Shown here: positions 37,029-46,190 of the stretch, piece by piece
How positions within the stretch are numbered: position 1 is the stretch's first letter
Layout: each line of letters opens with the position of its first letter
NCBI GenBank assembly: GCA_964437665.1
Contig: CAYTHS010000004.1
Location: 1 to 58,736 of the forward strand
DNA length: 58,736 nt
Reading direction: 5' to 3'
Source: an uncultured Oscillospiraceae bacterium
Lineage (GTDB): Bacteria; Bacillota; Clostridia; Christensenellales; CAG-138
Position numbers and translations under genes: made by a program
The notes under the pieces: model-generated
Told to the model about the DNA's origin: nothing
What the model saw: only the letters and a program-made list of their open reading frames with translations
Database searches by the model: none

Positions 37029-37441
37029 TCGACTGCCGGGAAAGCATCCCATGTGATCCCTGCCGCTATGCTTGCCCCGCACATGCTATCGTGATCGAGG
37101 GCGACATTACGAACCTGCCGCAGGTGTTTCCGGAGCGCTGTACGGGCTGCGGGCTTTGCGTTGCGGCGTGTCCCGGCCAGGCGTGTTTCTTGGTGGACGA
37201 GTATTACGCCGAGGGGCGTGCAAGCGTGGATTTCCCTTACGAATACCTGCCGCTGCCCGAGGTGGGTATGCGCGTAACTGCGCGGGACAACGACGGTTGC
37301 GACGTATGCGAAGCGCTCGTGGAACAGGTGATTTTGCGCAAAAGCGCACAGAATACAGCCGTCGTGCGCGTGAGCGTGCCGAAAGAATTCGCATTCCACG
37401 TGCGCGGCATGAAGCCTCTCCGCTTTCGGGAGAGGGAATAG
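37013..37441 (+). CDS. 2x[4Fe-4S] ferredoxin-domain protein
   Basis: C..SIPCDPC..ACP and CTGCGLCVAACPGQA, plus the C-terminal PYEYLPLP..G domain. Confidence 0.88.
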   Translation: MRKILIDCRESIPCDPCRYACPAHAIVIEGDITNLPQVFPERCTGCGLCVAACPGQACFLVDEYYAEGRASVDFPYEYLPLPEVGMRVTARDNDGCDVCEALVEQVILRKSAQNTAVVRVSVPKEFAFHVRGMKPLRFRERE

Positions 37442-37534
37442 TTCTTATGTTTCTCAAAAGAAAAGAAGCAAAATACTTGACTTGTTTTCCTTTCTTTTCT
37501 CAATTTTATATCGATCCGGAAACGGGTGTTTTAT

Positions 37535-37557
37535 AAAAACGCCTTGGGCGTTTTTTT
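37535..37557 (+). terminator. Intrinsic terminator of the Fe-S/flavin operon
   Basis: aaaaacgcc-ttg-ggcgttttt followed by a T-run. Confidence 0.65.
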
Positions 37558-37571
37558 ATGCTGCGGGCATG

Positions 37572-37673
37572 AAAAAAGGCGAAGCATAAGCCTCGCCAAA
37601 GCAACTCAGATTCGGCGGAGACCAGTTTCATGCTGCTGCTAGCGTGGATGGCCGACACGCCGAATCTTCTACT
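37572..37673 (-). ncRNA. Candidate standalone ~100-nt small RNA
   Basis: Minus-strand TTGACA (37700-37705) and TATA-rich -10, a perfect 10-bp stem agattcggcg/cgccgaatct, then terminator ggcgagg-cttatg-cttcgcc-TTTTTT. No ORF. Confidence 0.4.
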
Positions 37674-37709
37674 GAATATATATAACGCAAAGACTTAGCT
37701 GTCAATGCC

Positions 37710-37871
37710 TAGGGTGTGTTCCCAAAATCACAAAAGCGCATTACCGCCGCTTCAACTTGCATATTTTTGTTGAAAAGCCGCGCCGCAGCACCACTGCGCC
37801 TGTGTTTTTCGTCTCAACCTTCAAGCCGATCCAGCAAAACTGCATCTTTCAGGCTTTAAAACACACCTCAG
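37710..37871. mobile_element. MITE-like family 2, copy 1 (162 bp)
   Basis: Terminal inverted repeats TAGGGTGTGTT...AACACACCTCAG. Body is closely similar to 51257-51419. Confidence 0.75.
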
Positions 37872-38057
37872 GGGCATAATAGAGAAGATATCTCGTTTGC
37901 ATTCGATAAAAAAGCAGTGTGGATTCGGATATTACCGCGTCTTCGCCTGCTGCTGGCTCGGTCGGCAGGCACACAGAATCTACGGTCGAACATATATCAC
38001 GCGACGGTCCGGCTGTCAGTGCCCGGGGAAATAATAGGGAAGATTTCCCGTTTACAC

Positions 38058-38086
38058 TCGACAGAAAAACGATTCCTGATTAAAAT
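38058..38086 (+). promoter_or_regulatory. sigma70-type promoter for the giant-protein operon
   Basis: TCGACA-N17-TAAAAT about 100 nt upstream of ATG at 38185. Confidence 0.55.
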
Positions 38087-38184
38087 AATAAAAGAAGGAC
38101 CATTCATTTCTGATCGACGGCTTGATCGGTGCAACAATACCGGCGCCGGGCGCAACGCCTTGCGCAGACGGAGAGGTATCCCAC

Positions 38185-41100
38185 ATGGACGAACGCAACA
38201 CCGGGTTTGGCACGGCCGACGCGTTTTACGCGGAGTTTGCCAAAAGCGCCGGTATTCCGGTCAGGCAGATGCGTGCGCTGGCCGCGCGGACGGATTTCGG
38301 CAAAGGGTATAAGCGACTGTGCGGCGGCAGGATTTCCTGCAGGGAGGCGGCCGTGCTCTGCGAACCGATAGTAAAGCACATCGGCGGGATGCCGGAAGAA
38401 GGGATGCTGACTTTTGCCTACGAGTCGCTTTCCGCGGGGCTTTACCCTTATTCAGGTGCGCCGAAAACGGACAGGACAAAAAAAAGCGCGCTGCGTTTCT
38501 TTCTTGCGGTGCTTGCTAAGCTGCTAGACACGGAACGGGAAAATGCGTTCGACCCACTGCTTGACTATATACCCGTTACCATGGCCGAGATTGAAAAAAG
38601 CCCGATCGCCGAACAGTGCGCTAGGTTTTCTGAATCGATCAAGCGAAGCGGTTACCGCGAATTGCTGCGCATCGGACGTGAGATCATGCCTTTCGATCCG
38701 GCGGGGCATACGTTCGGCGTGCGTTACGTTGCGCTGCATATGGCGCGCCAGGCGGAAACATGCGGACTGCCCGTGGACGTGGCGCTTGTCGGCGCGGCGG
38801 CCCTGGCGCACGATATCGGAAAGTTCGGCTGCCGCGGCGAGGACATGCCGCGCATTCCGTATCTGCATTACTATTATACATGGAAGTGGCTCGAGGACGG
38901 CGGGATGCCGGACATTGCGCACATTGCGGCGAATCATTCCACTTGGGACCTCGAATTCGAGAACCTGCCGATTGAGTCGCTTCTGCTTATTTACTCGGAT
39001 TTCCGCGTGCGCGCCGAGCGGACGGCGGACGGCGAAAAAGCGGTGATTTGTACGCTCGCCGAGGCACGCGAACGTATCTTTAACAAGCTGGCGGACATGA
39101 CGCCACAGAAACGGCTCCGTTACGAAACAGTCTACAGCAAGCTCGACGATTTCGAACGTTTCATGCAGTCCAAAGGCGTGAACACCGATCCAAGCGACGA
39201 AACGCTGCACGCCGCGGACGTTCGAGACCCGGCGCTGCTTTCACAGGGCGAGGTCGTGCGCGCGCTTTGCAACCACGCGTTCGATAATAACGTCCACCTG
39301 ATGCATACCATTACCGTGAGCGATTCGTTTGAAGCGCTGCTCGAACAGGCGCGCGCGGAGAAAAATCTTAGCCGCATTCGTACCTATCTGTTGCTTTTTG
39401 AAGAATACAGTACCTATATGACCCGAACACGAAAGCTGCTCACTCTCCGTTTTCTATATGAATTGCTTATGCATCACGACGGCGACGTGCGTAGGCACGC
39501 GGGGCGCATCATGGGGGACATTCTCGCAAACTCCGGTCCGCGCTACCGCAAGGAACTGCCGCGCGGTGCAGGCGCGCTGGCGATCGCCCCCGCACTGCAT
39601 GCGGTGCTCAGCGAGTCCACCACGCTTTGGGACGAATACATCGAGCTTTGCCTGCATCCGGACTACAGGATTTCGCAGAAGCATGCCGCTCGCATTTCCA
39701 ACTCGCTCAAGACCATCGCTGGGAGTCTGTTCGCCAGCTGTCTGCCCGAAGAACGGCGCGGATACTGGGAAAAGCTGTTCCATCGTATCCTTTCGAGCGG
39801 AAGCGACGACCTGTTTGCGCTGATGGACACGCTTCCGCACGTGCCGGAGGCGGCGATTACGCGCGGCGAGGCGCAGCGCATGCTGCCGATCCTTTCCGCG
39901 GCGGCGTCGTCGCTCGAGGTGCGGGTACGCATCTGTGCGCTTCGGAGCCTGAGCGCCGTGGCAGACGGGGACGCGGCGCTTCTTAAGAGCGCGCTCGAGC
40001 TGGTGCGCCTCCCGCAGGATGCGGAATTTGCGTCTGTTTGGTTCGTCAACCGGCTGCGGAAAAAGGCGGGGATGCCGGCTCTGCCCGTACCGGCGCTGCC
40101 GATTGCGGAGATCTATCTTTCCAATCTTAAAAGCAGCGTTCCCTGGATGATGAAACTTGCGCAGATCGACCGGCTCTGCGATTATGTGCGTGAATTCCCC
40201 GCCGAAGCGTTCCATGCGGCCATGCACCTTTCCAACCTGCTTTCGGTGAGCGAACACCTGCCGGTCCGAGAACGGGCTGGCGAGGCGCTGGTGGAGGTGT
40301 CCGGACATCTGAGCGTAGATCAGCGCAACGAAATCATGATCGACCTGCTGCGCGAACTGGAAACCGGACAGAACGAGATATCCGGCTACATTCCGCCGTA
40401 TCTCGGCCAGTTGATCTGCGGCGTGCCGGAAAAGGAGATGGACGAAGGCATCGATTATCTCGAAGCGCTGATCCGTGCCTCCAACACGCGCGCGGCGCGC
40501 GCGGCGCTTTCGACGCTCTGCACTGTGCTCTCCGTTTACGTGAGCGAAAACAGCGCACGGATGAATGCGATGAGCGAACGGGTCTTCGGTCTGCTGCTAA
40601 CCGGCGTGGGGCACTTCGACGACGGGATACGGCTTACCGCGCTGGAGGTGATCTGCCGCAACTACTTCGCCAACGGTGCCTGTCCGCTGCAAGCGCGGCG
40701 TGCCGGTCTCGTCCGTTTCGGGAAAAAGCTTCTGACGCTGCTTGGCGAACGTCGGGACGGCATGCTGGCATTTTTCAACGAGGCGGCCATGCTCAACCAT
40801 CTTTACCGCTTCATCACGCTTTGCGAAACCGGCGGCGGGTTTGCCTATCCGCCGCTCAAGCCCGTCGCGTTTTTCCCCGGCACGTTCGATCCGTTTTCCG
40901 CCGGCCACAAGCGTATTGTGGAGGAAATCAAGGGACGCGGGTTCGAGGTGTACCTCGCGGTGGACGAATTTTCCTGGAGCAAGCGCACGCTGGCCAAGCT
41001 TATGCGGCGGCAGATCGTGAGCATGAGCGCCGCTTCTCTGCCGGACGTGTATCTTTTCCCCGACGATATCCCCGTCAATCTTGCCGTGCCGGACGATCTG

Positions 41101-42843
41101 TCGGACCTCTGCGCGCTGTTCCCCGGCAGGGAACTGTTCATCGTCGCGGGAAGCGACGTGGTCCTCAACGCGAGCGCCTACCGGCAGGGCGGCACAGACA
41201 CGGCACCGTATTACAACCACATTCTTTTTACGCGCGTGGAAGCCGCGCATACCGACGATCCGCGCCGGGCGGAGGATATCCTGAAGGGCAAGATTGTCTC
41301 TCTTACGCTCCCGGCGTACTACGAATCCGCAAGCAGCACGCAGATACGCGACTACATCGACAAGGACATCGACATCGGCATGCTGGTCGATCCGGTTGTG
41401 CAGGATTTCATCTATGCGCGGGGACTGTACCTGCGTATGCCGCAGTACAAGCGCAAACTCAGCGCGTCCGCGTCCGGCGGATTCGAGGTGCGCGAGGCGG
41501 CCGGTGTATATGATGCGACTGCAAGGGACGCTTCCGGCGATGCGCTTTCGCGTATCCGGGCAAAGAGCATCGGCGTGACCGACCTTTACGACGCGCTCGG
41601 GGGCAGGCGCACGGCGGCGGAGGCCGTACGGCGCTTCGCTTCGGGCAGAATACTCTTAATCGAGCGGACCGAGGGACGCGGGGAAGAGCTGCGCGCGCTG
41701 CTTTGCGGCCTGTTGGCGCGCTCGCTGAAAAACGAACACACCTATGCGCTCTACCGCTGTGAAAACGAAGCCGACCGCGCCGCCGCGCTGCAGACGGGGT
41801 TTTTACCCGTGCCGGGGGCAAACGATCTTCTCTGCGCGGATATGCGCGCGCCGCTGGTGCTGATCGAGGATGCGCTCCAGCGCATCAAAGAACCGTTTGC
41901 CGGTGACGAAGCTGTCCGCGAGGCTGTCGTTTCCGCGCGCCCCCCGCTGCGGCAGGCCATCGCCAGTATGTTTCCAGGCAAGCTGCTGCTCTGCTTCGAT
42001 ATGGAGGCCATCAATACCGGGCTGATCGAAAAGGTGCGCGCGCGCAACGGCGTTTCGTCCGTTTCGCCGGGGGACAGGCGGCTCGGCAAATATATGTGCG
42101 TTCCGTACGGCAAAATCCTCGCGGATACGATCGTACCCAACACGGTGACCAAAGCGCTTCATGTAGACAAGGTTTTCCGCGCGGACGAAAGCGGATTCGA
42201 CATCACCGAATCGCCGGGGTATTCTCCCCTTGCCAATCAGGTAAAAACGCTCAAGTCGTTCCGCAGGCCTGTGCTCCTGATCGACGATTTACTGCACAAC
42301 GGCTACCGGCTCGAAAAGCTGGACCCGTTGTTCCGCGAACAGGGAGTTGAGATCGAGCGCATCATCGTCGGCGTGCTTTCCAGCCGCGGGCTCGACCTTA
42401 TGCGCGAACAGAAACGCGAGGTAGACTGTGAATACTTCATCCCCAACATGCAATACTGGTTTACCGAGAGCCTGCTGCTGCCGTTCCTTGGCGGGGACAG
42501 CGTCTCCGGAGAAATCGGCGTACGTGATTTTCCGCCGAGCATCAACCTGATACTGCCGTATCAATACCCGAAATACCTGCATGGCGCGCCGCCGCCGGCC
42601 GTGCGCCAGTTCTCGCGCGTGGCGCTCAAAAACGCGCTGACCGTGCTGAGCGTGCTGGAGGAGCGATACCTCAAGCTGCAGGGCACGGGGCTGACGCTGC
42701 GCAGGCTTGGCGAGGCGCTTCTGCGTCCGCGTCTGCCGGACAAGGGCGCGCACGTGCAGTACGATCTCAACGCAATGGCGACGGCGTATATCCGCGACGA
42801 TATCCGCCAGATGCGGCGCATCTCCAACGCGGAGGATGTTTGA
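38185..42843 (+). CDS. Large multidomain protein: HD phosphohydrolase, helical repeats, NadD-like cytidyltransferase, degenerate GNAT-like region, PRTase-like domain
   Basis: HD set GHT..V, AHDIGK, H, NHS, YSD. NTase motifs FPGTFDPFSAGH, AGSD, SASSTQIR. PRTase loop VLLIDDLLHNG. 1552 aa from ATG at 38185 (GGAGAGG RBS). Confidence 0.8.
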   Translation: MDERNTGFGTADAFYAEFAKSAGIPVRQMRALAARTDFGKGYKRLCGGRISCREAAVLCEPIVKHIGGMPEEGMLTFAYESLSAGLYPYSGAPKTDRTKKSALRFFLAVLAKLLDTERENAFDPLLDYIPVTMAEIEKSPIAEQCARFSESIKRSGYRELLRIGREIMPFDPAGHTFGVRYVALHMARQAETCGLPVDVALVGAAALAHDIGKFGCRGEDMPRIPYLHYYYTWKWLEDGGMPDIAHIAANHSTWDLEFENLPIESLLLIYSDFRVRAERTADGEKAVICTLAEARERIFNKLADMTPQKRLRYETVYSKLDDFERFMQSKGVNTDPSDETLHAADVRDPALLSQGEVVRALCNHAFDNNVHLMHTITVSDSFEALLEQARAEKNLSRIRTYLLLFEEYSTYMTRTRKLLTLRFLYELLMHHDGDVRRHAGRIMGDILANSGPRYRKELPRGAGALAIAPALHAVLSESTTLWDEYIELCLHPDYRISQKHAARISNSLKTIAGSLFASCLPEERRGYWEKLFHRILSSGSDDLFALMDTLPHVPEAAITRGEAQRMLPILSAAASSLEVRVRICALRSLSAVADGDAALLKSALELVRLPQDAEFASVWFVNRLRKKAGMPALPVPALPIAEIYLSNLKSSVPWMMKLAQIDRLCDYVREFPAEAFHAAMHLSNLLSVSEHLPVRERAGEALVEVSGHLSVDQRNEIMIDLLRELETGQNEISGYIPPYLGQLICGVPEKEMDEGIDYLEALIRASNTRAARAALSTLCTVLSVYVSENSARMNAMSERVFGLLLTGVGHFDDGIRLTALEVICRNYFANGACPLQARRAGLVRFGKKLLTLLGERRDGMLAFFNEAAMLNHLYRFITLCETGGGFAYPPLKPVAFFPGTFDPFSAGHKRIVEEIKGRGFEVYLAVDEFSWSKRTLAKLMRRQIVSMSAASLPDVYLFPDDIPVNLAVPDDLSDLCALFPGRELFIVAGSDVVLNASAYRQGGTDTAPYYNHILFTRVEAAHTDDPRRAEDILKGKIVSLTLPAYYESASSTQIRDYIDKDIDIGMLVDPVVQDFIYARGLYLRMPQYKRKLSASASGGFEVREAAGVYDATARDASGDALSRIRAKSIGVTDLYDALGGRRTAAEAVRRFASGRILLIERTEGRGEELRALLCGLLARSLKNEHTYALYRCENEADRAAALQTGFLPVPGANDLLCADMRAPLVLIEDALQRIKEPFAGDEAVREAVVSARPPLRQAIASMFPGKLLLCFDMEAINTGLIEKVRARNGVSSVSPGDRRLGKYMCVPYGKILADTIVPNTVTKALHVDKVFRADESGFDITESPGYSPLANQVKTLKSFRRPVLLIDDLLHNGYRLEKLDPLFREQGVEIERIIVGVLSSRGLDLMREQKREVDCEYFIPNMQYWFTESLLLPFLGGDSVSGEIGVRDFPPSINLILPYQYPKYLHGAPPPAVRQFSRVALKNALTVLSVLEERYLKLQGTGLTLRRLGEALLRPRLPDKGAHVQYDLNAMATAYIRDDIRQMRRISNAEDV

Positions 42844-42847
42844 ACCT

Positions 42848-44089
42848 ATGAAGTATTACCGCTATTGTTCGTTCTGCCTCTGCCAGGCCGGCGGAGCACT
42901 CCCGGAAGGCGCTGAACCCGCAGACGAAGCGTTTACGCCGCTCGTCTTCCTTGTGGAACGCGACCCGAAGCAAAGCCGCGGATACTATGCGATACGCAGC
43001 CTTTCCGAACGAAGCGAGCCGGAAGGCGCGAACCTGCTGCTGCCTGCATGCCCGGCGAAAGAAAACGGCGCGCTCGCCCGATTGGTAAGTGCGAACGGCG
43101 CATGTGTGATCAACACGGCGTTTTCGCGTGGTTTCGACGTGCTGCAATATTCGGCCGTGCGTGCAAACGTGCGAAAAAAAGTCTGTCTGGTCGGCCTTGG
43201 CGACGTTGGCGGAGCGGTGCTCACCGGACTAAAACTTCTCGGTACGGATTTGTCCGAAATCGGCCTTTACGATCCGGACGGCAAGAGATGCGCCCGCTAC
43301 GAGGCGGAGTTGAATCAGATTCTGCCCGTACGCGGTGGCGAAGCGCTTCCGGAAGTGAAAATCGTGTCCGAAGCGGAATTATTCGATTGCGACGCGCTGA
43401 TCTTCACCGCGTCACGCGGTGTGCCGCCCGTCGGCAGGGAAGCGGGCGACGTGCGCATGGCTCAGTACGCCGCCAACCGCGATATGCTGCGCGCCTACGC
43501 GCACCGTGCGCGGAAAAGCGGCTTTTGCGGGCTGTTCTGCCAAGTGTCCGATCCGGTCGATCAGCTCGCACGCGCGGTGTTTTTGATGAGCAACGAAACC
43601 GATACGGGAGAGTTCGACGCGAACGGGCTTCTGCCCGAACAGGTGCGCGGATTCGGATTAGGCGTAATGCGTGCGCGCGCGGTTTATCTTGCGAAAAGAC
43701 AGGGGATACCGGCGGAAGCGTTCTGCGCGTTTGGACCGCACGGCGCGGGGCTTGTGATTGCGAACGCGCCGGAAGAGGGGTACGACGACGCGCTTTCAAG
43801 GCGGCTCACCGAAGAAACGGTGCAGGCCAACCTATCCATCCGCGCGCTGGGGTATAAGCCGTATATCGCGCCCGGACTTTCTTCGGCGGCGATCTCGATA
43901 CTGCGTGCGCTGCGCGGCGAATGGCACGACGCGGCGATTCCCGGGGGCGGGGTGTACTTCGGCTGCGAAACGCGCCTGACGAAAAACGGGTCCGAGCGCA
44001 GGCGACGCGGGCTCGACCCGGCGCTGTATGCGCGGATTAAGGAAAGCTGGCGGCGCTTAAAGGAGTTTGATGCGGCATGGACGAACTGA
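42848..44089 (+). CDS. Lactate/malate dehydrogenase-fold protein with N-terminal extension
   Basis: VGLGDVGG, IGLYD, DALIFTAS, VRMAQ..AN, VSDPVD, GPHG. Start is 42848 or 42836. Confidence 0.8.
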   Translation: MKYYRYCSFCLCQAGGALPEGAEPADEAFTPLVFLVERDPKQSRGYYAIRSLSERSEPEGANLLLPACPAKENGALARLVSANGACVINTAFSRGFDVLQYSAVRANVRKKVCLVGLGDVGGAVLTGLKLLGTDLSEIGLYDPDGKRCARYEAELNQILPVRGGEALPEVKIVSEAELFDCDALIFTASRGVPPVGREAGDVRMAQYAANRDMLRAYAHRARKSGFCGLFCQVSDPVDQLARAVFLMSNETDTGEFDANGLLPEQVRGFGLGVMRARAVYLAKRQGIPAEAFCAFGPHGAGLVIANAPEEGYDDALSRRLTEETVQANLSIRALGYKPYIAPGLSSAAISILRALRGEWHDAAIPGGGVYFGCETRLTKNGSERRRRGLDPALYARIKESWRRLKEFDAAWTN

Positions 44090-45126
44090 TCGTCATAACG
44101 GCAGGCCGAAGCGATCGCCTGGACGAGACGCTCCGCTTTGCGCTTTCCGGTATACCGCATGCAACTGCGGACGCTGGGAACGCGCTGCAAAATCTCGCCG
44201 GGAGGCGGGTGCTTTTTGCGCTCGCGGCAGACGAAGCGGGTATGAGCAAAAGCACGTTTTTACTGATCGCCGCGCTGCGGCGGAAGTCGTGTGCGATGGA
44301 AGGCTCGATTGCCGGGATCCTGCTTGACGGTGATGGCGAGCTTTATACCAAGCAGACCGCAGACCAGCTTGCGTTGGCGGCAAACCTTGCCGGCTGCATC
44401 TTTCCGGGAAGACCGCTTGTGGAGGCGACCGGTTCGCTGGCCAACTGGCGTGTGCAGGGAAAGCGCCGGGATGTGGAACCAGCGGAAGCCTATCGGCTCG
44501 CCGCGCGCGAGCTCGTCATGCGGCTGGCGGCGTTTGAAGCGCCGCGGTTTGCAAAACCGAAAATACTGATGCTCCACGCGTCGGACAAGGGGACTTCCAA
44601 TACGCTGCAGATCGGGTCGAACGTCTGCGGGCGGCTGCGAGGCCGGTTCGACGTGCGGGAGTTGTCGCTGCAGAACGGTACGATTTACGATTGCCGCGGC
44701 TGCTCGTTTACGACCTGCGCACACTACGCCGCGCAGAATTCCTGCTTCTACGGCGGAAGCATTGTCAGCGAAGTATATCCCGCGCTGATGGCGTGTGACG
44801 CGTTGCTGCTGCTCTGCCCGAATTACAATGATTCCGTGAGCGCGAATATCATGGCGTTCATCAACCGCCTCACGAGCCTTGTGGTGTTCAATCCGCCCTA
44901 CGATAAATATCTTTACGCCGTCGTTGTTTCGGGTTACAGCGGGGGCGACCTTGTGGCGCAGCAGACGCTCGGCGCGCTTTGCCTCAACAAAGCGTTCATG
45001 CTGCCGCCCCGTTTTTGCCTGTTGGAGACGGCCCATTATCCCGGTGAAGCGATGCGGTCCGCGAATATCGAAAAACGCATCGACGCCTTTGCCGAAGGCA
45101 TCGCGAATACGCTGATTGCCCGATGA
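44077..45126 (+). CDS. Tandem flavodoxin-fold / iron-sulfur flavoprotein-like NAD(P)H oxidoreductase
   Basis: C-terminal half: LHAS...SNT, DCRGCSFTTC...NSC, DALLLLCPNYN.SVSANIMAFINRL. N-terminal half is a degenerate flavodoxin-like repeat. Overlaps the LDH-like stop. Confidence 0.75.
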   Translation: MDELIVITAGRSDRLDETLRFALSGIPHATADAGNALQNLAGRRVLFALAADEAGMSKSTFLLIAALRRKSCAMEGSIAGILLDGDGELYTKQTADQLALAANLAGCIFPGRPLVEATGSLANWRVQGKRRDVEPAEAYRLAARELVMRLAAFEAPRFAKPKILMLHASDKGTSNTLQIGSNVCGRLRGRFDVRELSLQNGTIYDCRGCSFTTCAHYAAQNSCFYGGSIVSEVYPALMACDALLLLCPNYNDSVSANIMAFINRLTSLVVFNPPYDKYLYAVVVSGYSGGDLVAQQTLGALCLNKAFMLPPRFCLLETAHYPGEAMRSANIEKRIDAFAEGIANTLIAR

Positions 45127-45148
45127 GGCAAATCGCGTTTTGCGACGT

Positions 45149-45177
45149 TTGAATCCGTCGCGGACGCATGTTAAAAT
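45149..45177 (+). promoter_or_regulatory. sigma70-type promoter upstream of the methyltransferase
   Basis: TTGAAT-N17-TAAAAT. Confidence 0.45.
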
Positions 45178-45473
45178 GCAAAATATACTGGGATGCAGCC
45201 GAATGAAACGCCAAAAGGAAGTGTCGGTTTGGCCGTTGTTCTGCAAGGGACATGCAAAAAAAAACAATCGCAATAGGATTACGAAAAAAGGCCGTTTATT
45301 GGGGCTGCCTGCTGTTTCGTACGGAAACACCAGGCCGTGCGGCATACAAAGCTCACCGGATCGACCGTGGTTTACCCCGGCCGCTTTCTTTTTCCGCAGG
45401 GAAACGGGTTCTGCATGTATAGATGGAAGCAAACAAAAAAATGTTATGACGTAATACCGAAAGGGAAGAGAGA

Positions 45474-46190
45474 ATGAAATTTGTAAACACAAACATGTTT
45501 ACCGAGGCCTTTATTCGCGAGAACATCATGGGACCGAATCCTGCAAAACTGCTGGAAGAGACGATTCACCGTTACCCGGTCGAGCGCGGGTCGGTCGTGC
45601 TTGACCTTGGCTGCGGCAAGGGGGTTACGTCCGTTATGCTGGCGAAGGAATACGGTCTGCGAGTGTTCGCAACCGACCTTTGGATTCCGCCGACGGAGAA
45701 CTGGGCGCGCTTCCGTACGTTTGGTCTCGGCGCGGACGAGATCGTCCCCGTCTATGCGGAGGCGCATGCGCTGCCGTACGCCGAGGCGTTCTTCGATGCG
45801 GCCGTCTGCATCGATGCATATCAATACTTCGGTATTGACCCTGCGTACCTCGGCAAACACCTGCTCCCGCTCGTTAAGCGCGGCGGCATACTTCTTTTCG
45901 TCGTGCCGGGGATGAAACGCTGCTTTGGCGGTGATTATCCGCAGGAAATGCTGCTTTCATGGACAAAGGAAGACCTTGCAACGCTGCGCGCGCGCGAATT
46001 CTGGATTGAAAACCTTTCGCACACAGAGGAAGCGGAGGTGCTCGACGTCTGGGAACTGCAACACTTTGACGAATGCTGGAACGACTGGCTGGCGTGTGAA
46101 AACGAACATGCTATACAGGACAGGCCTTCGATGGAAGCCGGCGCCGGAAAACACATGAATCTGCTGGCCATGGCGCTGCGCCGGAAATAG
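45474..46190 (+). CDS. Class I SAM-dependent methyltransferase
   Basis: VLDLGCGKG motif I, A..LPYA..FFDA..C.DAYQYFG, LVKRGG. Confidence 0.9.
   Translation: MKFVNTNMFTEAFIRENIMGPNPAKLLEETIHRYPVERGSVVLDLGCGKGVTSVMLAKEYGLRVFATDLWIPPTENWARFRTFGLGADEIVPVYAEAHALPYAEAFFDAAVCIDAYQYFGIDPAYLGKHLLPLVKRGGILLFVVPGMKRCFGGDYPQEMLLSWTKEDLATLRAREFWIENLSHTEEAEVLDVWELQHFDECWNDWLACENEHAIQDRPSMEAGAGKHMNLLAMALRRK

Follow-up and report, generated by a model that had tools for sequence, protein, structure and literature searches.

A divergent lactate dehydrogenase-like protein and an Isf-like flavoprotein encoded in a conserved cassette with a giant multidomain protein of Clostridia

A three-gene cassette

The contig CAYTHS010000004.1 of an uncultured Oscillospiraceae bacterium carries a cassette of three co-directional genes on the forward strand. 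The genes encode a giant multidomain protein, a protein related to lactate dehydrogenase (LDH) and malate dehydrogenase (MDH) that is referred to here as P0001, and a flavoprotein-like protein, P0002. All coordinates are positions in the window, by which we mean the whole stretch of 58,736 nt that was analysed. The giant gene (38185..42843, +) ends in a TGA stop at 42841-42843. Its open reading frame extends back to a TTG at 38122, and the likely start is the ATG at 38185, which has GGAGA ahead of it at 38170. Only 4 nt separate the stop from the ATG of the LDH-like gene (42848..44089, +; 413 aa; TGA at 44087-44089), whose ribosome-binding site (RBS), GGAGG, lies at 42831 and whose start is supported by homologues of 412-414 aa that are 98-84% identical. 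The flavoprotein-like gene (44077..45126, +; 349 aa) begins in turn at an ATG, position 44077, inside the last 13 nt of the P0001 gene and has AAGGAG as its RBS at 44060. These stops and starts agree with an initial annotation of the sequence, which had described a 4-bp gap followed by a 13-bp overlap. Taken together, the layout and the RBS of each gene indicate that the three genes are translationally coupled.

The best sigma-70-type match between 37400 and 45600 is TCGACA-N17-TAAAAT (38058..38086, +; 10/12), a promoter-like site located about 100 nt upstream of the giant ATG. In the same scan, no comparable sigma-70-like site was found inside the cassette. Four related loci (L001, L002, L008 and L009) keep a block of sequence, TCGACAG...TTAAAATA, ahead of the giant gene. 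Because the best site lies ahead of the giant gene and the same block recurs in these loci, a single promoter for all three genes, as given in the initial annotation, is plausible. The leader also contains a 43-nt direct repeat (37871-37913 and 38026-38068) whose copies are 79% identical and 155 nt apart, the second copy overlapping the -35 hexamer of the promoter-like site. While the leader of L001 is repeated in similar fashion, the exact pattern is not kept in other loci, and the repeat was rejected as a conserved element. Rfam scans of the 5' region (37400-38250) and of the downstream spacer (45100-45500) returned chance-level matches only, with no match for the 43-nt repeat.

Co-inheritance and distribution

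In an evenly sampled set of 300 Clostridia genomes, hereafter the class sample, all three genes are present in exactly the same 21 genomes (7%), where they are adjacent and in the same order. There is one copy of each, except for an extra giant-gene paralogue in one genome (G140). Two scans of a species-representative genome collection each gave more than 570 confirmed matches, which are lower bounds, and 160 loci were taken from these scans with linkage counted wherever the flanking DNA sufficed. Across 171 loci in all, the LDH-like gene is preceded by the giant gene in 156/159 (82/83 and 74/76 in the two sets) and directly followed by the flavoprotein gene in 163/165 (86/87 and 77/78). By a mirror-tree comparison of 40 loci, the pairwise distance matrices of the three proteins correlate with r 0.90-0.92. 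P0001 was never found apart from P0002 and, in the class sample, it occurs only in genomes with the giant gene. Gene linkage is far beyond chance, and the three genes are one conserved, co-inherited unit. The initial annotation had named independent assortment across genomes as the test of its view that the genes are coupled; what was found instead is shared presence in the same 21/300 genomes, about 98% linkage in the 171 loci and a correlation near 0.9.

Carriers are Clostridia of gut, rumen, digester and sediment. Among the cultured ones are Clostridium drakei SL1, C. muellerianum P21, Anaerotignum propionicum, A. neopropionicum and Lutispora thermophila. The same gene order is seen in contigs labelled Atribacterota and Calditrichales (L110, L112, L120, L125, L131, L143, L162 and L167). 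Since these contigs keep the arrangement, the cassette probably also moves as a whole, which suggests transfer out of the Firmicutes, or else binning errors. In one locus, a gene for an SNF2 helicase has been inserted. The circular chromosome of a Christensenellaceae metagenome-assembled genome (MAG), OY762290.1, has two full cassettes (L019 and L021) about 100 kb apart across the numbering origin of the record. Literature searches on the domain combination and on the nitrogen link described below found no paper on the cassette.

P0001, a divergent member of the LDH/MDH superfamily

The AlphaFold2 model of P0001, built from a 71-sequence alignment, has the overall two-domain LDH fold with a mean predicted local distance difference test score (pLDDT) of 96.1 and a predicted template modelling (TM) score of 0.94. 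The top 50 Foldseek matches in the PDB are nearly all L-LDHs, with one MDH, at E values of about 1e-17 to 1e-15, target-normalised TM of 0.68-0.79 and 17-21% identity; for the LDHs of Lactobacillus casei (6J9T) and Geobacillus (1LDN) the TM value is 0.75-0.79. Sequence scores are far lower. The protein reaches 19.4 bits against Pfam Ldh_1_N (22.2 in the genome scan) where the cut-off is 27, does not match Pfam Ldh_1_C, and scores about 20 bits against the NCBIfam LDH/MDH models, which have cut-offs of 283-339. Its clade, taken at E below 1e-10, falls into about 340 clusters of 50% identity, and some NCBI records call its relatives 'lactate dehydrogenase'.

Sequence matches to solved LDHs start near residue 105. 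The preceding residues 1-109 (42848..43174, +) form an N-terminal extension outside the span of the LDH matches, modelled as a block at pLDDT 93-98 with strands over residues 3-49 followed by a helix-strand-helix. Its measured length of about 109 aa bears out the figure of about 110 aa given earlier, and no family match was found for it. The extension is present in most orthologues and absent in G163, G217, G140 and L007. Because it is missing in these few lineages, whose proteins are 318-337 aa long, it is an accessory part.

Active-site residues were mapped by aligning the family profile to solved LDHs, including 4q3n, 9dq7 and 3d0o, and the conservation figures refer to the 71-sequence alignment, which holds relatives down to about 30% identity. 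The dinucleotide-binding motif GLGDVG (residues 116-121; 43193..43210, +) has G118 and G121 at least 90% conserved, as is Asp142 (43271-43273, +), an acidic residue of the NAD type at the end of strand 2. Arg203 in DVRMAQ (43454..43456, +) is invariant, aligns with the Arg of GETR in solved LDHs and corresponds to the loop Arg109. His298 in GPHG (296-299; 43733..43744, +), aligned to GEHG of 4q3n, corresponds to the catalytic His195; it is conserved to at least 90% and lies between the invariant G296 and G299. The stretch GLGVMRAR (270-277; 43655..43678, +) aligns with GSGTSLDTAR of 4q3n and places Arg277 at Arg171 and Met274 at Asp168, both residues being invariant. Finally, SDPVD (234-238; 43547..43561, +) aligns with SNPVD of 4q3n, 9dq7 and 3d0o, which puts Asp235, at least 90% conserved, in the position of Asn140. 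The initial annotation had recognised all of these elements (GxGxxG, the Arg of VRMAQ, the His of GPHG, GLGVMRAR and SDPVD), and each is present where it was placed. Its further statement that the Asp of the His-Asp pair is lost holds for the whole alignment.

With the equivalents of Arg109, Arg171 and His195 conserved, P0001 retains the parts that hydride transfer with a 2-oxo or 2-hydroxy acid requires, namely the carboxylate clamp, the carbonyl polariser and the acid/base. Asn140 and Asp168 are both first-shell active-site residues and lie less than 6 Å from the substrate in MDH structures (PMC4109310). Since the loss of Asp168 together with the gain of Asp140 would keep the net charge of the pocket, we infer that the two changes represent a relocated carboxylate and not decay. 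Cortés et al. (Protein Science, 1992) reportedly found that the ionised form of an ordinary LDH is inactive once Asp has been introduced at position 140, an effect said to arise because the LDH pocket does not tolerate the extra negative charge.

The substrate loop of P0001, AS.GVP.VG....DVRM, is about 4 residues longer than that of LDH by hand count. It has no conserved Gln or Arg to match Gln102 of LDH or Arg102 of MDH, with the caveat that the equivalence of position 102 is approximate and comes from alignment only. Similar features are known from the L-2-hydroxyisocaproate dehydrogenase (HicDH) clade, in which loop insertions and a residue other than Gln or Arg at 102 go with altered substrate specificity; HicDHs keep Asp168 (PMC4109310). 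A HicDH (PDB 1HYH) is the best single-sequence PDB match of P0001, which appears to resemble HicDHs both in a specificity position that is neither Gln nor Arg and in having extra residues within the 102-109 loop. The match spans the NAD domain only, however, at an E value of 5e-4. Membership of the HicDH clade was considered and rejected: the loop features appear to fit, but the P0001 family has replaced Asp168.

P0001 stands in a mixed relation to the L-LDH/MDH superfamily. It shares with it the two-domain fold, the GxGxxG motif, the acidic NAD residue and the three catalytic equivalents, while it differs in its low identity, its score below the Ldh_1_N cut-off, its missing Ldh_1_C match, the invariant Met at 168 and the Asp at 140. 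Most members also have the N-terminal extension, and the gene is nearly always found beside the giant and flavoprotein genes. On these features P0001 is best described as a new, deep subfamily of the LDH/MDH superfamily.

Three genomes of one family (f46) contain an LDH-like match with one in-frame TAA, at G324:C1:3367152-3368114, G304:C12:283366-284235 and G358:C1:1592969-1593838. These could be pseudogenes, sequencing errors or cases of alignment past the gene end.

P0002, an Isf-like two-domain flavoprotein

Orthologues of P0002 are 340-370 aa in length, and the AlphaFold2 model (pLDDT 92.8) consists of two alpha/beta halves, a make-up that the initial annotation overlooked. The N-terminal domain (residues 1-157; 44077..44547, +) is predicted to have an alternating strand-helix fold of unassigned family, with no Pfam match; G55, K92, E116 and N123 are invariant in a 47-sequence alignment. 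The idea of a tandem flavodoxin produced by internal duplication is unsupported by the sequence, because hhalign gave a probability of 0.4% when the N-terminal half was compared with the C-terminal half.

The second half of the protein is a flavodoxin-like FMN_red domain (PF03358; residues 161-313; 44557..45015, +) that scores 51.7 bits (E 9.6e-14) against a cut-off of 24. The best Foldseek matches of P0002 are reductases of flavin mononucleotide (FMN), namely SP1951, SsuE, AzoR and NQO1, and no sequence relative was found in the PDB, profile search included. Three loops, HAS..TSNT, PNYND and SGYSGG, hold invariant residues and match the flavin-binding loops of the FMN_red family. Within the domain, the cysteine motif CRGCSFTTCAHYAAQNSC (C206, C209, C214, H216 and C223; 44692..44745, +) is a candidate [4Fe-4S] site. 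The pattern C-x2-C-x4-C-x8-C is present in 64/64 orthologues, and no member of the 47-sequence alignment departs from the four Cys or from His216. It lies between the second strand and the next helix, where the pLDDT of 69-81 is the lowest of the model, as might be expected for a site that requires a cofactor. The initial annotation had read this region as CxxCx4Cx7C in a flavodoxin fold. Its four-cysteine motif and its fold both stand, the latter by the FMN_red score, but the last spacing is x8 and not x7.

A [4Fe-4S] cluster bound by this motif would make P0002 similar to the iron-sulfur flavoproteins (Isf), which contain FMN and a compact motif, CX2CX2CX5-7C, that is thought to bind such a cluster (PMC3164229). 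Like the Isf of Methanosarcina and other anaerobes, which belongs to Pfam FMN_red, P0002 has the FMN_red fold and the conserved flavin-loop motifs, and its domain contains four cysteines in an insert that is reached after about 45 residues. We take the site of this insert to be the place that the cluster motif occupies in Isf, in the same fold. The usual Isf is a single flavodoxin-like domain of about 200 aa. P0002, at 349 aa, differs from it by the extra alpha/beta domain of about 157 aa at the N-terminus, by the CX2CX4CX8C spacing with an invariant His, by the constant pairing of its gene with the LDH-like gene and by having no sequence relative in the PDB. Its domains and motifs are those of a predicted Isf-like two-domain flavoprotein.

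The giant partner protein

Counted from the ATG at 38185, the giant protein has 1552 aa and is made up of an HD domain, a helical region, a NadD-like nucleotidyltransferase domain and a C-terminus resembling a phosphoribosyltransferase (PRTase). Pfam HD and CTP_transf_like score above their cut-offs. The Pribosyltran match is weak (12.9 bits against a Pfam cut-off of 26.3), and the NCBIfam NadD models are sub-threshold (29.5 bits against 150). The motifs HDxGK, NHSTWD (a second His cluster), PGTFDPF..GH, SST.IR and DD..G.R are 90-100% conserved over 40 loci. Since the HD, second-His, NadD-type and PRTase-like motifs are conserved to this degree, the giant protein is probably an active nucleotidyltransferase and phosphohydrolase.

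The nearest known arrangement is the NadD-YqeK pair of Firmicutes, a nicotinic acid mononucleotide adenylyltransferase and an HD hydrolase, which the giant protein recalls by joining an HD domain to a NadD-like domain in which the motifs GH and SST.IR are present. In contrast to that pair, it is far below all NadD cut-offs, is 1552 aa long with a helical region and a PRTase-like end, and is linked to two redox proteins. The second giant paralogue of G140 (L012, G140:C9, 5664-10724) is a diverged protein of 1686 aa. Its gene is followed by a diacylglycerol-kinase-like gene and typA and has no LDH-like or flavoprotein partner.

Genomic neighbours

No fourth conserved gene accompanies the cassette. 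The best candidate, an S-adenosylmethionine (SAM)-methyltransferase, is a neighbour in 12/95 loci, all of them close relatives of the window. In the window the cassette follows a flavoprotein/ferredoxin operon and precedes genes for this methyltransferase (45474-46190; 238 aa; after a spacer of about 350 nt), DUF1836 and DegV. The same methyltransferase comes after a spacer of about 310 nt in L008 and L009; in the 12 loci the family is followed by the DUF1836 and DegV genes, and it is absent in distant loci.

Other recurrent neighbours are involved in nitrogen metabolism, a recurrence beside genes of ammonium and glutamine assimilation that the initial annotation overlooked. They include the glutamine-hydrolysing asparagine synthetase AsnB (13 loci), the type III glutamine synthetase GS-III (8 loci) and the glutamate dehydrogenase GDH (5 loci). 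When loci chosen for nitrogen neighbours are left out, a gene for AsnB, GS-III, GDH, glutamate synthase (GOGAT), Amt-PII or CarB lies within 9 kb of the cassette in 19/88 loci, about a fifth, as compared with an expected background of about 6% (seven gene families with one or two copies in a 3-Mb genome). For AsnB, 15% is observed as compared with an expected value of about 1%, again roughly estimated. The cassette of the window itself has no nitrogen-gene neighbour.

At L067, the one locus of its kind, an Amt-PII fusion occurs with GltB/GltD near the cassette. In two further loci, L010 (G032:C54, 7918-13236) and L011 (G211:C24, 7243-12446), an amt gene on the opposite strand and three GOGAT-domain genes lie between the giant gene and the LDH-like gene. 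The three encode a split archaeal-type glutamate synthase, consisting of a glutamine amidotransferase-like protein, an FMN subunit with ferredoxin-type Cys motifs and a GXGXG protein; no GltD-type NADPH subunit is encoded there. The contig of the first, JAENYD010000007.1, is labelled as a Clostridium thermobutyricum MAG. The genome of Clostridiaceae bacterium 35-E11 (G301) differs from most in having the giant gene and the pair at separate loci. At the first, L097 (11831-19388), the giant gene and the 3' end of carB share 11 nt of overlap. At the second, L079 (6310-11189), the LDH-like and flavoprotein genes adjoin genes for a thioredoxin-reductase/thioredoxin fusion and a 4Fe-4S dicluster protein.

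A possible redox pair

The best-supported view, which we hold tentatively, is that P0001 and P0002 form a dedicated redox pair that works with the giant protein and are not enzymes of central fermentation. P0001 would be a catalytically competent, NAD(H)-dependent oxidoreductase of 2-hydroxyacids and 2-oxoacids, in which the active-site carboxylate may have shifted from position 168 to position 140. Its loop is longer and apparently without Gln or Arg at 102, which makes pyruvate and oxaloacetate improbable as its substrate; a speculative candidate is 2-oxoglutarate or a closely related compound. P0002, by analogy with Isf, would connect a hydride donor at FMN with a one-electron partner, the electrons passing by way of the putative [4Fe-4S] cluster. 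A complex of the pair with the giant protein is probable. More speculatively, since the cassette recurs beside AsnB, GS-III, GDH, GOGAT, Amt-PII and CarB genes, the pair may tie the nucleotidyl transfer and hydrolysis of the giant protein to a redox step with a 2-oxoacid and NAD(H) in ammonium and glutamine assimilation.

Several points weigh against the view of a dedicated redox pair. About 78% of loci are without a nearby nitrogen gene, and the background of about 6% is a rough estimate only, not a computed control. GlnR/TnrA boxes (TGTNAN7TNACA) occur in 12/66 upstream regions as compared with 14.5 +/- 3.3 in shuffles, and hence show no enrichment. In the complete genome of 35-E11, the giant gene is 1.5 Mb from the LDH-like/flavoprotein pair, so physical coupling is not obligatory. 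Neither the N-terminal domain of P0002 nor the N-terminal extension of P0001 is explained by this view. The charge-swap argument rests on sequence alignment and on literature about the Asn140Asp change in LDH, and the substrate, the cofactors and the complex are all predictions.

Alternative explanations

The first alternative is that the cassette is a sensor or regulator, a reading that we consider unlikely. By analogy with the post-translational nitrogen regulators GlnD and GlnE, which to our knowledge are absent from anaerobic Firmicutes, the giant protein would be a nucleotidyl writer-eraser that uses its NadD-like transferase and HD hydrolase domains either to act on a nitrogen-assimilation protein or to make and destroy a dinucleotide signal. 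P0001 and P0002 would then be ligand sensors in place of metabolic enzymes: P0001 would read 2-oxoglutarate and NADH, P0002 would read the redox state, and together they would set the balance of the two opposing activities. The recurrent GS-III, GOGAT, GDH, AsnB, Amt-PII and CarB neighbours are consistent with such a function, as are the joining of transferase and hydrolase with a long helical region and the tight 1:1:1 linkage, which suggests a complex. Against it, the full set of Arg109, Arg171 and His195 equivalents has been kept over deep divergence, beyond the need of a pure sensor. There is also no conserved target protein in the neighbourhood, GlnR/TnrA sites are not enriched, and most loci are without a nearby nitrogen gene.

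Somewhat less probable is a cofactor pathway, one of two hypotheses put forward in the initial annotation, the other being a regulated enzyme-modifier pair. In such a pathway the giant protein would build a non-standard adenylylated dinucleotide: its PRTase-like domain would form a mononucleotide, to which its NadD-like domain would attach AMP. The product would serve as a hydride carrier in the Rossmann site of P0001, and P0002 would re-oxidise or reduce it via FMN and its Fe-S cluster. The strong conservation of PGTFDPF..GH and SST.IR and of the PRTase-like DD..G.R fits this scheme, as do the adenosine-binding Asp142 of P0001 and the oxidation of reduced nicotinamide dinucleotides that the family description gives for FMN_red enzymes. 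However, the PRTase match is below the Pfam cut-off and is without the (S/T)-G-x-T end of the phosphoribosyl pyrophosphate (PRPP) loop, no base-supplying or amidating enzyme is consistently linked, and the Rossmann site of P0001 resembles an ordinary NAD site.

In the two genomes with the inserted GOGAT genes (G032 and G211), the pair comes directly after three GOGAT-domain genes that have no GltD-type subunit, and the GOGAT FMN subunit there has ferredoxin-type Cys motifs. This raises the idea that P0002, with or without P0001, supplies NAD(P)H- or ferredoxin-linked reductant to the three-subunit archaeal-type GOGAT or to another nitrogen enzyme that has no NADPH subunit. As a general explanation it is improbable: the arrangement is confined to two genomes of the class sample, the window genome and most others have no adjoining GOGAT, and the near-universal linkage to the giant gene is left unexplained.

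About as improbable is the reading that the linkage is meaningless and that P0001, as a divergent L-lactate or malate dehydrogenase, simply stands in for the canonical enzyme. It would agree with the NCBI records, several of which name relatives of P0001 'lactate dehydrogenase', and with the window genome (92% complete), which has no Ldh_1_C protein and in which P0001 is the only protein of the LDH superfamily. In the class sample, moreover, an Ldh_1_C protein is found in 2/21 cassette-positive genomes and in 174/279 cassette-negative ones (Fisher 1.9e-6). Within one family of 121 genomes, 43 of them cassette-positive, the contrast nearly vanishes (30/43 positive genomes compared with 65/77 others; p 0.065), which argues that it is mostly a lineage effect, and replacement of the canonical LDH/MDH was rejected. 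Since P0001 coexists with the canonical enzyme in many genomes, including those 30, a separate role is argued for it. The invariable loss of Asp168, the longer loop with apparently neither Gln nor Arg at 102, and the fact that P0001 never occurs away from P0002 nor, in the class sample, outside giant-gene genomes point the same way. The initial annotation had concluded that P0001 is not a lactate or malate dehydrogenase, and its scores below the Pfam and NCBIfam cut-offs, the changes at 168 and 140 and its coexistence with Ldh_1_C proteins all favour that conclusion; by its sequence, an ordinary LDH/MDH is unlikely.

Least probable by far is an anti-phage defence system based on NAD or nucleotide chemistry. 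Such a system would suit the union of HD and nucleotidyltransferase domains in one giant protein of several domains, and also the patchy distribution of the cassette (7% of the class sample). It is unlikely because PADLOC finds only a chance-level match for P0001 (E 0.0068, 13 bits) and does not match P0002 or the giant protein, and because the neighbours are housekeeping and nitrogen genes and not defence islands. The pairwise distances of the three proteins, moreover, rise and fall together across loci.

Significance

In textbooks the catalytic constellation of the LDH/MDH superfamily counts as fixed, and the P0001 clade would test its rigidity. If the relocation is true, P0001 would be the first member of the superfamily with its active-site carboxylate moved from 168 to 140. 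The pair also accompanies, almost without exception, an unstudied nucleotide enzyme of 1552 aa. It is conceivable, though doubtful, that the cassette as a whole is an unrecognised nitrogen-status machine of anaerobic Firmicutes, a writer-eraser governed by two modules, one derived from LDH for 2-oxoacid and NADH and one derived from Isf for redox, or else the maker and user of a new adenylylated dinucleotide. The recurrent nitrogen-gene neighbours suggest that ammonium assimilation, or its control, has a component that has gone unrecognised, and the cultured carriers make the function of the cassette directly testable.

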